DNA of 64,000 nucleotides from Cystobasidiomycetes sp. EMM_F5 (Eukaryota), in NCBI GenBank assembly GCA_051047955.1, contig JBPGPT010000035.1, positions 1-64,000 of the forward strand, read 5' to 3'. A program made the position numbers and the translations under genes. Numbering within the stretch: position 1 is the stretch's first letter; each line of letters begins with the position of its first letter. Below the pieces are notes generated by a model. That model was not told the DNA's origin. It saw only the letters and a program-made list of their open reading frames with translations, and did no database searches. This document shows, piece by piece, positions 4,383 through 35,461 of this stretch.

Positions 4383-6557
4383 ATGGCTAGCTCCAGTCCG
4401 CCCTTGAAGATTCCGACCAACCATGTTGCAGATAACCGTCATCTCTTCGAAGCAATCTTCCCCCTGCACACATCTATCAAAGGAATCTTGCACTCCTCCA
4501 CCTTCTTCTCCATTCCATGTGCACCCTCGAAATCGCCTATCCAGAATCCACGGAGATGCCTGCTCCACCTCTCCCTCGTATTCAAGCCCGGTCCTGATGC
4601 CTTCCTAGGAGACCTGAATATGCGCCTCAATTTCTCTGTCACCGAAGGTGGACCTGTTGCAGTACTCGGCTGTCGTATGCTAGATCTTGAGCAGGATACC
4701 GTCTTTTTTAAACAATTTTCGCAAACTTGGCAGCGGAGATCGACGGATCCACTCAATTCACGATGGCATCGAGAAGGTTTTGAACAGCTATTTTCACATC
4801 AGTCTGATGCCAATCAAGTATTTCAACACCTCAGTTCAAAGGAATGCAGAGTGTATGGCACTCGTTTCTGGACGGAGAGTATTACGAGAGATTCGTTATT
4901 TCTCAGAGGTAGTGGTCCTCTTGGCAAAAATCCCGGCATCCTCCATACCGTACCTCTCTGCGTAATGCTCGAATATCCACCTCATTCAACTTCTCAGCTC
5001 GTCGCTTCCGTGTCCATAAGCGCTGTCCTCCAGCGGAACAAGACGGACGCAGAGTACGCCGAGGATGAGTTGCTGTATGGCATCACAGAGCGATTCGAGG
5101 ATCTGGAGTCGTTTGCAACCGTTATGCTATCCGTACCGCTTGCAAACGAGCCGGCTGTTCCTCTCACACCAATCCCTCTCTCTTCGCGTCCGCTGTGTGA
5201 TATACTTCACAAAAGAGCAAAAGTGGTGCGAAGCCCACCAGTCAGCCCATTGTTGGCGCCGAAAGCGAGGCAGCCTGTTTTGCCGCTGCTGTCGCTGACA
5301 CTGCCTGAAGGGTCGCCCGACCCGCAGGCAGCGGGGATCCGACGACCCTCCACCGCCCGTGAGCGCAAGTTTGGAGGACGCCCACTGAAGTATGTGCATC
5401 GAGACGTAGGTATGTCCTTCTTTCGCGCTCGCCACAAAGCGTGGGAAAAGGCTCGCGGAGGTGCATCAGCGTCGCAGGTCGACAAGGGCAAGGGTAGGGC
5501 TCCGCAAGACGGCTCCTGTGAACCGGCAGCGCACAATATCGCTCAGGATCAGCCGGCATATCCTCCTCTACGCGACCCAGCAATACGTGTCAAGCCTCCC
5601 GTCAGTGGGAGGACTCTCCTCAGGCCGCTGTCGAGCAGTCACATGGCTGCCCCATTTGTCGCTCGTCGAGCTACCCCGAAAGAGCCGTCAAATGCAAAGG
5701 TTGTACAGCCTTCAGAGTTAGCCAACGTCGCAAGCGGACCAAAGCCGTCAGGAGTGCCCAGTGTGGCAAGCAGACCTCAGACTCCAGAAGCAGTCGGAGT
5801 CGCGAGCAATACTCAGCCTCCGAGGATAATCAGCGCCACAAGTAAACCACAGGCTGCAGAGACAGTAAATGCTGCACTCTTCCTACAGCCTTCAGCACCA
5901 AGTGGTGTAACTGTTCCGGAGCGCAGGCTGCGTAGAACAAAAGCGCAGACGTTGCCATCCACTTCACCTGTCAGCGGAAATCAACCAAAGGATGAAGCTC
6001 AGCAGGTCGTGACTCGGCAGGTCGAGGCTGCACCTGAGGCAGAGCAGGTGCCGAGGCCCGCCTCTACTTTTCAGCCATCGGATCTGATCAGCGAAAGCGG
6101 TACAAACTCCAGCAACGGGCGCCTGGCGTATGCAGGCGCCAGGGCGCTACTGTCACAGATGATGCAAGACGGAGCGATTAGACAAGCAATGTTGGAGCGA
6201 GGCCCCGACAGGGTTCTCACGAGGATGTTTCGACGAATGTGTACTTCAGATGTCATGGAATTTTTCGAGACCGACTGGGTCATCTTCGAAGAGGTCTTGA
6301 AATCACAAATACGCAAGATGCAGGTGGCACCTACGATAGGCCAGACTCCTAGCTTGATCTATCTGCGAGATTTTATCGGACATAAGCGGTCTGCGGATCA
6401 ATTGGCAGAGCTCTCCATTGCTTCCTCGGACCTGACGCCGCCTCGCGGACCTGGCCGTCGAGTGAATATTGAGCGAGCGCCCGAAGCTGGTCCGTCTACG
6501 CACAGTGGGCGACAGAGGCGACAGTCACCACATGCGAATTTGGGCGCTGAAGGATGA
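4383..6557 (+). CDS. Hypothetical protein (724 aa ORF)
   Basis: Long uninterrupted ORF with a globular-looking N-terminus and a Pro/Ala/Ser-rich middle. No recognised family. Confidence 0.7.
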   Translation: MASSSPPLKIPTNHVADNRHLFEAIFPLHTSIKGILHSSTFFSIPCAPSKSPIQNPRRCLLHLSLVFKPGPDAFLGDLNMRLNFSVTEGGPVAVLGCRMLDLEQDTVFFKQFSQTWQRRSTDPLNSRWHREGFEQLFSHQSDANQVFQHLSSKECRVYGTRFWTESITRDSLFLRGSGPLGKNPGILHTVPLCVMLEYPPHSTSQLVASVSISAVLQRNKTDAEYAEDELLYGITERFEDLESFATVMLSVPLANEPAVPLTPIPLSSRPLCDILHKRAKVVRSPPVSPLLAPKARQPVLPLLSLTLPEGSPDPQAAGIRRPSTARERKFGGRPLKYVHRDVGMSFFRARHKAWEKARGGASASQVDKGKGRAPQDGSCEPAAHNIAQDQPAYPPLRDPAIRVKPPVSGRTLLRPLSSSHMAAPFVARRATPKEPSNAKVVQPSELANVASGPKPSGVPSVASRPQTPEAVGVASNTQPPRIISATSKPQAAETVNAALFLQPSAPSGVTVPERRLRRTKAQTLPSTSPVSGNQPKDEAQQVVTRQVEAAPEAEQVPRPASTFQPSDLISESGTNSSNGRLAYAGARALLSQMMQDGAIRQAMLERGPDRVLTRMFRRMCTSDVMEFFETDWVIFEEVLKSQIRKMQVAPTIGQTPSLIYLRDFIGHKRSADQLAELSIASSDLTPPRGPGRRVNIERAPEAGPSTHSGRQRRQSPHANLGAEG

Positions 6558-31107: not shown

Positions 31108-32300
31108 CTACCCGTGAGCGTGGACTTCGAGGATACCTTGCTCAGCCCGCTTTAAGAGATAGCGAGCGCTTCGCTGCGTCAGACGCCAGCACAGCTGCAG
31201 ACTTTTGACAAGCCCGACCATAATGAAAAGTACGACCAGAACGACCCCAAACTTGTTGAGCCTGCCACGCTCGTCGCGACTAGAACGCACGGTGCGGAAA
31301 AGTCCATTCCTGAGGGGATGCAGCGGCCTGTTCAAACCTTGTGTCAGCGTATAGCAATATGAATTGTAGAAGGGCCACCGACAGCCATGGCAAGGACATT
31401 ACCATCCAGAAGAAGCTGCCAATGCCAGTCATGGAAAATCCGAGCGACATGTGCGTCATCGTATCGCCAAGTCGGGTGAGGATACGCTTGCGTCTGGATT
31501 TAGATCGTTTCCCGATCATGCGGTATGATGACTCTGAACCACTCCCAGTGTAGCGTGCTTCAGTAACGTCTGATGTTGCATCACCATATTCGATACGTTT
31601 CGTTAATGGGTTGTTGGCTGCTGCTCGATGGGCTAGCTTTACAGCCTGCCCAACGGCCTCAAAAGACATGTAGTTACTGCTTAGCGGCCATGTATCGTAG
31701 ACATCGTATGATGGGTTCGGCCCATCGAAGAACAAGGTCGATATTATAGATCCGGGGGCTTGAGATCTTCGAATGAGCCAGTTGCCAATGTGTCCGTTAA
31801 CGTACACCAGAAACAGAAAGAAAGTCCCAGCCAAAGCCATCAGTGCATCTTGTCCTCATGTCAGCTGCAGTCACACGTGGAGGATTGCGCTCACATCGAT
31901 TTTCGGCCAACCCAGCTATCCGGGCGCGCTTCAGGCGATACTTGTACTTGCATTGGTCACATTGGAAGAAGGACGTGCTCCCTCTTGAAACGCTACGCCA
32001 GGTATTCAAGCATTGGACGTGTACTTTTGCCACTGATCCTCGGCACAGGCATGGCGATATCAAGCGCTGAAGGCAGGTTTCAGATGAGCCTCCTTGTCCA
32101 GTACTACTACTACTTACCCCCAAATCTTGTTCCTCAGCTCCTCCGAAACATATCCTGCAGACCGGTGCGTCCGAGCCACGTATCTCGTCATCCGACACCT
32201 CGACAGATTCTTGAGCACCGTCATCCGGCTTAACGTGATCTATGATTGGCTCGTCATTCGATTCCGTACCGTCAGGCTCCAAATCCTCCCAGTCGTCCAT
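31108..32300 (-). CDS. RING-CH (RINGv/MARCH-type) membrane E3 ubiquitin ligase
   Basis: CRICF...LISPCLCRGSVAKVHVQCLNTWR...CDQCKYKY plus several TM segments. Confidence 0.88.
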
Positions 32301-33046
32301 AGTCTCATCAATTGATACTGACAGAAGAGGGGTGGCACGGGATTGTAGACGAGTGGTTTCAAAGCAACTAATTCTGACAAGCTTTGATTTAAGTGGTTCT
32401 CCACGTCCTATACGATATTTCTGCTGAGATGTCTCTTGCTTTTCCAGCTCTAGCTCGCGAGCACACAATATATGCGCGGGGCTTTGGAAGATCTCGGCTT
32501 CTGCACGAGCAAAGGTATTGCCTTGGAACATCAACACCTGACTATCATCAGCTGTGCTTACTGAGTCCCGAATATCTTGGAAATTCGTAACCCGTTCTGC
32601 TCGTCAAGGGATTGTCTTTGCTGTTCCAGCCTACACACAGCACGACGACACAGACTAGACGGGTTTGGATCGGGCGTAGTATTCCTTGTTATGTGTAATA
32701 AAGCATTCGCAGAAGACATAACATGCAATGTTGTACGTAAAAAAGGGATTCTTTCGAACGCCTGGGGAATTTCTCCACAATTGACGCTCATCAACAAAAA
32801 AATTCTTAGCACGAAATGAAGTCGTTTAATAACCTGAGTTACCACCCAAAAGAAGTGTAACGTTACGAGCCCCATAATATCGGGCTCAGGATCTTAATTT
32901 CTAGATCCTCCCGGAATGCTTTGGGCCTTTCTCTCGAAGAATCTTTGAAAACTCGAGACAGGGTTGCAAACACGTATCTTCTGCAAGAGAAGACGTCAAA
33001 TCATGGATTCTAGTGTTTCGTGACGCAAAAGATCGGAATACTACGC

Positions 33047-33051
33047 AAAAA
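33047..33051 (-). terminator. Oligo-T (T5) candidate Pol III terminator for tRNA-Val
   Basis: First run of at least 4 T on the minus strand downstream of the tRNA 3' end. Confidence 0.4.
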
Positions 33052-33082
33052 CGTACGCACGTCCTTGGAGCACCAAGAGCAA

Positions 33083-33211
33083 TGACCAAGGAGGGTTTCG
33101 ATCCCGCGACATTTTGCGTGTAAAGCAAACACTCTCCCAACTGAGTTACTCCTAATTCGACGTTTTTATTAGGTAAAGTCACGCATTCAGCGAATTCCGA
33201 AACTCACGGCC
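33083..33211 (-). tRNA. tRNA-Val(TAC) interrupted by a 56-nt GT-AG intron in the acceptor stem (exon 1 33211-33208; exon 2 33151-33083)
   Basis: Spliced sequence GGCCGAG TA ACTC AGTTGGGA GAGT G TTTGC TTTACAC GCAAA ATGTC GCGGG ATCGAAA CCCTC CTTGGTC A is 73 nt. It has a 7-bp acceptor stem (2 G-U), a 4-bp D stem, a 5-bp anticodon stem, a T stem with one mismatch and discriminator A73. Confidence 0.85.
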
Positions 33212-33234
33212 AAATATTGCGGACCCAGACCTCA

Positions 33235-33248
33235 ATTTTAACATATAA
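33235..33248 (-). promoter_or_regulatory. TATA-like AT tract about 25-37 nt upstream of the tRNA-Val 5' end
   Basis: Minus strand TTATATGTTAAAAT, flanked by two copies of CGCAATATTT (33212-33221, 33254-33263). Confidence 0.4.
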
Positions 33249-34384
33249 CCGGAAAATATTGCGCGGCTGCAGACTAATCTTGAAATCACCTTCGGCCCAG
33301 AAGCCGGTTCGCTGAAAGCCCTCCTGCAGCATCGAAAAGTACCAATTTAGAGAAAGAAGTTGGCGTGCACATCAACTCTCTGAACAAATCTTGACCTGCA
33401 GTATATCATGATGAGTTGCCTTTTCAAGGTCCGGAAGGCATACTCGATGGATGGTACGCAGCGCCCACCTCTTTCTGAGTTCAGAAAACTGTCCAGTCAT
33501 CGAAAAACGCGATGGATACTCTAAAGCAGCCTATTGATGAATTCTTGACGTTTGCGGCTAGGTGCGCTCTCCGTCAAAAGATCATCACTGATATCGGTCC
33601 GATAAGCCGTGAGAACGAATGGCGTTGATTTGCACTATGCAATTTCCCCCTTCAGCTTTACCCCCATCCTCTCACACTTGTTATTAAGCTCTCTTCCGAT
33701 ACTTTGTGAAGCAAGATAATCTCATGCAGGTTGGTAGAGAACGCGACATCGTGGCTCGCTACTACCGTCACCGATCAAGATTGACACGCATGTCAGTTGG
33801 CAGCACTTTCTTGAACCTTCGAGATGTCAGCGTGATGAAGCGTGCAGTGTGTTTATCACACCGCAACGATAGTTGAGGTTAGCAACGACATCGAGTAGGA
33901 CAGCTTTTGATTACTTCATCACGGATTCTTCACGATCGCCGATTCGCGTCTAGTTTGCCAGAAAAATGGCACATTGGCAGCCGCGTGACCGTTCATCACT
34001 TCGCGTGCTCAGACGGATGAAGCTTTTGGCAATTTCCACACTCGACTTTTGCTGCCTAAGTACAGCAGATGCCGGATTAGCCATGCGCAGCAATCCACCT
34101 ACCAACTACATTTCTATTGGTTAACGCCTTCAGTACAGCCGCTCTACTATCTGTTGGACAGATGGTCAGCCGTACATCAAAGTGAGTCAGTTTGAAAAAC
34201 AGCAAGTCAGGAGTATTAAGCAGGGAAGTGGAATTCAGCGTGACGGGCTGGGCCCAGGGAAGGCGGAAAATAGAAAACACTGTCTCGATGGGTCAATGTC
34301 GTATCATACACTGTGACTAGTCTTTGTAGACACACAATGCAAATGCACTGACATAATAGACTGTAGCATCATACGTGCTCCCGT

Positions 34385-35461
34385 CTACAGATCTTTGGTC
34401 CTGTCCTCGGCTTCCTTCTTTGCCCTTGCGCCGGCTACTTGCTGTCTCTTCACCTTGGTATTGATATAAGTTCCCAAGACAAAGTTGATGAGAGAAAAGA
34501 ATGGCACCCAGATCTCGTTCATGAGGAATCTCTGAGCGAAGAAGACGGACAGCGGAGACACGACCCAGGTAGTCCGCATCAGGTTTGGCATCTGGCTGCG
34601 TACAAAGGCGATGATATCGCCAATGTGACGTTTTCCGCCAAGATACGAAAGGAAGGCAAGGTAGGCTTGAGAGTGCAGATTTCGTTAGTTTCAAGCTCAG
34701 TTTATGCTCAGACGAAAGGCTGACCTGCTCCCTGGATTGGTGCGACAGTCAAGTTGTTGACAACCAGGAGAAGAACTGCATCCCGCCAGCCATGTTAGCC
34801 AAACGTCGAAACGCTAGACTCAATCCCTTACGTCTGTCACGAGCACTCGTCTTGCCAGCAAAAGCCTTTTGCAGCGTTCCTACCAGGAAATGAGCGAGTG
34901 GAGCGCTGACCAAGAAGCCTGCAAAGCAAGCGGAGGTGTGAGTATAGTTGATAATGCCGCAACATGGGGCGTGAATGGATGAAATTCACCATAAGCAGAG
35001 AGCTTGAATGCGCGTTTGTTAGACTTGACAAAGTCGACCGGTGCAATACCGGTCTTTTGATAAGGCTGCGAGCGGGCCGACTCTGGGTCAACAGCCTCTC
35101 AAGGTTTCACGACTGTCACACTCACCTCAGGAGGAGCACCAGAGAGGGATCTGGCAATGTTTTCCTGTTGGGGTATCACAATCAGCTTGTGCCGACCGTA
35201 TCACATGTCGCTTCAGACTTACTCCAGCGAAATTGAGGAGAGCAGCAGTAACCCTTAAGACAGCCAGTCAGCGTTGCCGTCACTCCAGCAGGAGATAACT
35301 AACGCCTTGGTTAGGATTGGTCGTCGGATCAGGCTGCAAAGCGTGCTGAACATCAGCCATGCCGACTCATCAGTTGAGTCCCTTGGTTCGGCTTACACAT
35401 CCAGATACTTCTCGAGAAGCGGGTTGATCTGCTTGCGAGATGGGACGAGAGGCGTCGACAT
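34385..35461 (-). CDS. Mpv17/PMP22 family (peroxisomal membrane) protein
   Basis: LLEKYLDV|LIRRPILTKA N-terminal motif; TWVVSPLSVFFAQRFL...WVPFFSLINFVLGTYIN. Confidence 0.85.

Follow-up and report, generated by a model that had tools for sequence, protein, structure and literature searches.

The window analysed here, by which we mean the whole 64-kb stretch of DNA, carries genes of eukaryotic type (Leo1, F-box, RINGv, GST and N-acetylglutamate synthase, Arg2), and the candidate locus is the only feature in an interval of about 2 kb that is bounded by two minus-strand genes. One neighbour is an ORF of the Mpv17/PMP22 family (34385-34684, minus strand; Pfam-type domain match), and an ORF with a RINGv (RING-variant) domain match lies downstream of the locus on the same strand (31797-32603, minus strand). 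The RINGv ORF may itself have an upstream exon, joined to it via an intron-like segment at 32538-32638. Read on the minus strand, the locus begins with a proposed exon 1 of four bases, GGCC (33208..33211), which corresponds to tRNA positions 1-4 in the 5' strand of the acceptor stem. It is followed by a candidate spliceosomal-type intron of 56 nt (33152..33207, minus strand), whose signals can be read from the sequence: the donor GTGAGT at 33207-33202, the branch motif CTAAT at 33172-33168, with the branch A at 33169, 17 nt from the 3' end, and the acceptor TAG at 33154-33152. The proposed exon 2 (33083..33151, minus strand; 69 nt) starts GAGTAACTCAG and comprises tRNA positions 5-73, that is, the D-arm, the anticodon arm with the anticodon TAC at 33122-33120, the variable loop, the T-arm, the 3' acceptor strand CTTGGTC and, as its last base at 33083, the discriminator A73. 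On the same strand, a TATA motif (33244..33247) that precedes the first base of exon 1 by 36 to 33 nt may be an upstream promoter element, and a run of five T (T5; 33047..33051), 32 nt downstream of A73, may act as a Pol III terminator. Apart from this T5 run, the T runs near the locus are those at 33256-33253 and 33030-33027, and there are no others nearby. By eye, a trailer hairpin, CTTGG-TGCT-CCAAG (33062-33075, minus strand), can be seen between A73 and the T5 run; an alternative partner for the CCAAGG of this hairpin could be the CCTTGG that runs from the last bases of the T-stem into the 3' acceptor strand.

With the Rfam tRNA model (RF00005), a single match was obtained in the window, at 33089-33150 on the minus strand, at 37 bits, where the gathering score is 29, and with an E value of 3.7e-4 over the whole window, and no further tRNA-like sequence was found in the 64 kb, even at E values of up to 10. 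The match spans only positions 6-65 of the 71 positions of the model, which implies that the acceptor stem is absent from the contiguous DNA. In fact, the contiguous sequence TTAGGAG pairs with CTTGGTC at 3 of 7 positions, in agreement with the earlier note, which had described the stem as broken before splicing, and the minimum-free-energy structure given by RNAfold for the contiguous genomic 73-mer is not the cloverleaf. Once nucleotides 33207-33152 are removed, the cloverleaf becomes the minimum-free-energy structure of the RNA. The earlier note had suggested that tRNA finders be run on the unspliced and the spliced sequence, and had expected that standard finders would miss or truncate the gene. 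The comparison, made with ARAGORN, bears this out: no tRNA was called in the 64-kb window or in the unspliced locus with its flanks, the spliced sequence was called as a 73-nt tRNA-Val(tac), and the Rfam match is the truncated one given above. It had also been stated that removal of exactly this segment restores a 7-position acceptor stem and a 73-nt cloverleaf with A73. This stands, with the qualification that two of the seven restored pairs are G-U, which had gone unmentioned. The split tRNA-like anatomy, with an acceptor stem that is broken but repairable, is confirmed.

For comparison with introns of the same DNA, a first intron-finding heuristic proved too lax, since its 6,535 candidates were not enriched for donors, and a composite motif scan and an ORF-bridging scan took its place; a tblastn search with the window's own Arg2 protein matched a single exon and yielded no introns. 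The composite motif scan of both strands of the window gave 61 intron-like segments, of which 17, including the candidate, pass a filter requiring that two open frames of at least 40 codons be joined and that read-through meet a stop. In the 16 other segments, the median length is 60.5 nt (range 47-103) and the median distance from branch to acceptor is 17 nt; the donors include GTAAGT (5/16) and GTGAGT (4/16), the branch motifs are CTGAC (6/16), CTAAT (5/16) and CTGAT (5/16), and the acceptors are CAG (9/16) and TAG (7/16). The parameters of the candidate coincide with the mode of these 16 segments, which substantiates the earlier claim that its donor, branch, acceptor and length resemble those of local introns. 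One of them, the plus-strand segment 12119-12174, has identical parameters (56 nt, GTGAGT, CTAAT at 17 nt, TAG) and an unrelated interior. The candidate has the features of a U2-type GT-AG intron, namely a GTRNGT donor, a CTRAY branch motif 10-40 nt from the end, a YAG acceptor and a length in the local range, and its fold is nothing special (z = 0.61). A random 56-nt insertion would very rarely bear all three splice signals; consequently, if a tRNA gene was interrupted here by an insertion, that insertion would be an intron.

No repeat of the region 33000-33400 longer than 14 nt was found elsewhere in the window, so the candidate is not a copy of any repeat or introner seen here, and an origin as an introner or repeat was rejected for want of similar sequence elsewhere in the window. 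As regards a tRNA-derived repeat (SINE) or a duplicated fragment, the 64-kb window showed neither a repeat of this length nor a second tRNA-like match.

It may be asked how readily such an arrangement arises by chance. Every position on both strands of the window (127,680 in total) was taken as a mock exon-2 start. Bare repair of the stem by removal of a GT-AG segment is possible at 5,101 of them (4%), and at 22% of the positions already preceded by AG; taken alone it is uninformative. Requiring a GTRNGT donor and a YAG acceptor leaves 76 positions; if, in addition, a CTRAY branch must lie at 8-40 nt and the segment must measure 45-100 nt, 13 remain (about 1e-4), among them the candidate locus and real introns. 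A TATA motif at -40 to -25 is found at 3.3% of window positions, and for a T5 run no more than 40 nt away from such a 3' end the figure is 2.2%. In addition, GGCC followed by GTGAGT is the sole 4-mer in the 600 nt upstream that both pairs with the 3' strand and precedes GT. There being only one eligible donor in this interval, the solution is unique and was not chosen among several. Chance would yield such an arrangement far less often than it yields a mere GT-AG match.

These figures bear directly on the reading of the locus as a 5'-truncated tRNA remnant, either a pseudogene or an organelle or bacterial piece, beside which GGCC and the intron-like signals would have fallen fortuitously. Such a reading draws on the ease of bare GT-AG repair, on the fact that one pairing 4-mer with GT per 600 nt is about the chance expectation, and on the very many windows scanned, among which rare coincidences will surface; the imperfect T-arm, and a D-arm and body that resemble bacterial or organelle-type Val-TAC genes rather than nuclear Val genes of a non-fungal sample (described below), can be added to these. 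On the other hand, it has to accommodate a full feature set that occurs at only 13 of the 127,680 positions, together with a TATA motif at -36, and flanks that are not AT-rich, hold no other tRNA or organelle-like feature, which also counts against a possible organelle insert, and have no repeat copies in the window. On balance, we regard a fortuitous arrangement as unlikely, though it deserves serious consideration, and a genuine spliceosomal-type intron within a tRNA gene as probable from the sequence.

The body of the tRNA is atypical, a point that the earlier note overlooked in calling the cloverleaf exact. The D and anticodon stems are fully paired, and the conserved core is present (T8, A14, G18-G19, T33, a 7-nt anticodon loop, G53, T55, C56, A58 and C61); the T-stem, however, has one mismatch, C50-U64, and position 54 is A instead of T, which gives the T-loop ATCGAAA. 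This form of the loop is found in the eukaryotic initiator tRNA. With the C-U mismatch, A54 and a D-arm of bacterial or organelle type, the gene might be dead or might not serve in decoding.

The type of the D-arm was assessed in a metagenome scan with a 22-base pattern from the anticodon arm, which proved too general and returned at least 120 loci of bacterial, organellar, phage or protist Val-TAC type. Among the matches listed, 115 loci are complete, and all of these share the anticodon arm. A nuclear Val-type D-arm without an encoded CCA is present in 66 of the 115, and the D-arm type of the candidate, A[AG]CTCAG, in 26, of which 17 encode CCA. An encoded CCA is a trait of bacterial or organellar genes. 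Judged against this non-fungal sample, the candidate does not have a nuclear eukaryotic-type Val D-arm. Over positions 8-65, and among the non-fungal matches listed, it is identical at 53-54 of 58 positions to Val-TAC genes of bacterial, organelle or phage type, and at 44 of 58 at most to 67 Val-TAC genes of nuclear eukaryote type. The genes of bacterial or phage type at this level (53-54/58) include L121, from a Rickettsiales MAG, and the metagenome loci L025, L007, L013 and L014, which share with the candidate the unusual A10-T25 pair. A scan of prokaryote genomes with the exact 41-base pattern found one record, a normal tRNA-Val in the same Rickettsiales MAG. Since the metagenome sample is mostly aquatic and not fungal, and 22 of the 58 compared positions are fixed by the pattern, the comparison of tRNA bodies is to be read as a caution and not as a verdict.

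No related fungal locus was found among the metagenome matches listed (at least 120) or in the prokaryote genome scan. Among the matches listed, ARAGORN called 114 of 120 pattern sites. The six that it did not call comprise four at contig ends (L011, L051, L075 and L088), one aberrant site (L004) and one with two acceptor mismatches (L100), and none of the six shows a GT-AG split (by visual check in the case of L100). L100 is a Val-TAC gene of nuclear (eukaryote) type with a T-run terminator, in which the 5' and 3' acceptor strands are mismatched at two positions. Another metagenome Val-TAC gene, L084, has a D-arm of the AGCTCAG type, no encoded CCA and a T8 terminator, and is thus probably nuclear; the D-arm type of the candidate therefore occurs in at least one eukaryote-like Val-TAC gene.

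The position of the intron raises the matter of transcription. Both internal promoter boxes follow the intron, and this makes it less likely that the A box directs the start of the full precursor. In yeast Pol III genes, the A box, bound by TFIIIC, normally sets the start about 10-20 bp upstream of itself. A start directed in this manner would fall inside the intron, and exon 1 would be lost, which speaks against a working tRNA. A start set by the TATA motif would include exon 1, but exon 1 and the leader would together measure only about 10 nt, which is very short for a 5' exon and counts in the same direction. The T5 run, at 32 nt from the 3' end, also lies further away than is typical of fungal tRNA trailers. 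The 56-nt intron contains no T run of four or more, as a scan for such runs showed in keeping with the earlier note. The TATA motif, the T5 run and the T4-free intron would fit a TATA-assisted Pol III gene, and are weak evidence on their own.

Alternatively, the intron may be real and its host gene dead. An insertion would then have produced a young pseudogene that is not productively transcribed or spliced; one possible route is that an intron was reverse-spliced into the transcript of a tRNA gene, and that the product was reverse-transcribed and entered the genome by recombination. A precise insertion leaves a perfectly repairable gene whether or not the gene works, so the same anatomy and the same statistics are expected; the T-stem mismatch and A54 could represent early decay, and the intron moves the A and B boxes about 56 bp away from the upstream start region, which by the rules of Pol III initiation would disturb the start site. 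However, no damage is seen in any of the splice signals, in three of the four stems, or in A73, the TATA motif and the T5 run, which fits either selection or a very recent event, and fungal genes for U6, which is made by Pol III, are reported with up to four canonical introns (PMC5855946). We consider a dead gene unlikely.

The intron could also belong to a Pol II transcript, such as that of a small gene, a lncRNA or a long RINGv 5' UTR, with the tRNA-like sequence as a passenger in its second exon, either cut out by RNase P and RNase Z or inert. The segment does pass the ORF-bridging filter, with 54 open codons upstream, 46 in-frame codons downstream and a read-through stop inside, and the same strand carries the RINGv ORF further downstream. 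Against this, the joined ORFs have no Pfam match, and their scores (-0.012 and -0.155, where in-frame sequence averages 0.086 and off-frame sequence -0.146) give no sign of coding bias, although this is a weak test, real RINGv chunks scoring between -0.06 and 0.18. A passenger would, moreover, leave unexplained why the four bases before the donor supply, at the exact offset, the missing part of the acceptor stem, for which the odds are about 1 in 32. A Pol II transcript with a tRNA-like passenger is, in our view, quite unlikely, and the coding-gene reading was rejected for its lack of a Pfam match and of codon bias, the codon test being weak. Removal of the 56 nt joins two open frames in phase (33010-33371 of the window, minus strand), giving a possible ORF of 87 aa with an ATG near 33332; this joined ORF is probably due to chance.

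A further alternative is a tRNA-type intron at a non-canonical position, excised by the tRNA splicing endonuclease through a bulge-helix-bulge, as in archaea and a few algae. The fungal endonuclease measures from the mature domain to position 37/38, which counts against such an intron here. The non-canonical positions of archaeal tRNA introns include the acceptor stem. Introns at many positions of the tRNA, acceptor stems included, are known from archaea and Cyanidioschyzon, as treated in part in PMC4090602. The unspliced locus, however, shows no bulge-helix-bulge at the junctions in either the minimum-free-energy or the centroid fold, with z = -0.49 relative to shuffled sequences, and a full set of spliceosomal signals is present instead. 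An endonuclease-type intron thus appears highly improbable, and the bulge-helix-bulge reading was rejected on its position at 4/5 and not 37/38, on the absence of the motif from the folds and on the z value.

Based on the signals of the locus, the reading that we prefer, though only tentatively, is a gene of tRNA-Val(UAC) type in which a genuine U2-type intron of 56 nt separates nucleotides 4 and 5 of the 5' acceptor strand, and whose transcript would be spliced to give the tRNA. In such a gene, the precursor would begin upstream of GGCC, transcribed either by Pol III from a start about 30 nt after the TATA motif at -36 or by Pol II from further upstream. The spliceosome would then read GTGAGT, CTAAT and TAG and join GGCC to GAG. 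From established tRNA processing, the 7-bp acceptor stem would be expected to form only after this step, and RNase P and RNase Z would then trim the ends, before CCA is added. It is possible, though we hold this with still more reserve, that the maturation of a nuclear tRNA depends here on the spliceosome, with the intron leaving before RNase P and RNase Z processing and before charging, and that this is the first such case reported in a tRNA gene.

The lineage of the DNA and the introns known from other stable RNAs are relevant to this proposal. The Arg2 protein of the window is 62% identical to that of Cystobasidium minutum (Cystobasidiomycetes), and 46-49% identical to matches from Sporobolomyces, Rhodotorula and Microbotryum, which we take to be Microbotryomycetes; the comparison concerns one gene only. 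Rhodotorula hasegawae (now Erythrobasidium hasegawianum) belongs to the Cystobasidiomycetes, a class apparently shared with the window. Its U6 gene is reportedly one of those with multiple introns. In the reference list of PMC5855946, the species is named in titles reporting mRNA-type introns in the U2, U1 and U5 snRNA genes. According to the same source, U6 of S. pombe, a Pol III product, is a substrate of the spliceosome, spliceosomal introns in fungal rRNA genes are on record through a citation, and it is not clear what determines whether an intron enters a non-coding RNA (PMC5855946). Fungal U3 snoRNA genes have normal spliceosomal introns that are clustered in 5' stem regions and are mostly inferred computationally, as described in the sections available of PMC5832005. 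Taken together, snRNA introns in the same class and the introns of fungal U6 and U3 genes make it plausible that a further small stable RNA in this lineage should have acquired a spliceosomal intron. A tRNA-gene intron of the spliceosomal kind receives no mention in the accessible parts of PMC5855946 or PMC5832005, and a literature search of open-access papers, main text only, gave no report of one. In their available sections, a 2025 paper calls spliceosomal and tRNA introns completely unrelated (PMC12530127), and a 2023 review of tRNA mentions the spliceosome once, only in contrast to tRNA splicing (PMC10275265).

If the proposal is true, the locus would provide the first case of a spliceosomal intron in a tRNA, whereas other genes for stable RNAs are already known to have introns of mRNA type. 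It would cross the line between spliceosomal and tRNA introns, which these two sources treat as separate classes with unrelated machines (PMC10275265, PMC12530127). Intron gain in stable RNAs would then extend beyond the components of the spliceosome, which would bear on how introns spread, by reverse splicing or by other routes, and the class known for snRNA introns hints that intron gain into abundant small RNAs may be general in the lineage. It would also have to be explained how a precursor, whether made by Pol III or by Pol II, is recognised when its first exon measures 4 nt. In practical terms, counts of tRNA genes made with standard finders could be incomplete in intron-rich fungi. A search rule can be offered, in which truncated covariance-model matches in Cystobasidiomycetes and other genomes are tested for repair by GT-AG removal.

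The closest known systems are the snRNA introns of yeasts, in U6 of S. pombe and in U6, U2, U1 and U5 of R. hasegawae. Like these, the candidate is a short intron with GT, branch and AG in the gene of a small structured RNA that would be unable to fold or function before the spliceosome acts, and it comes from a fungal class apparently shared with R. hasegawae. Transcription by Pol III, a feature of the U6 host gene, may be a further likeness if the candidate locus is transcribed as predicted. Unlike the snRNA introns, the candidate has as its host a tRNA and not a component of the spliceosome, interrupts the mature RNA after only 4 nt, ahead of both internal promoter boxes, and is predicted to be spliced; the usual explanation of their origin, reverse splicing into an RNA at the catalytic centre, is not directly applicable to it. 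With the introns of fungal U3 snoRNA and rRNA genes it shares normal spliceosomal signals in the gene of a stable RNA, whereas U3 and rRNA are not tRNAs. In common with the SEN/TSEN introns of archaea, Cyanidioschyzon and nucleomorphs, it interrupts a tRNA gene in such a way that standard finders miss or truncate it. It differs from them in that it has no bulge-helix-bulge, is placed at position 4/5 and not 37/38, and carries the signals of the spliceosome.
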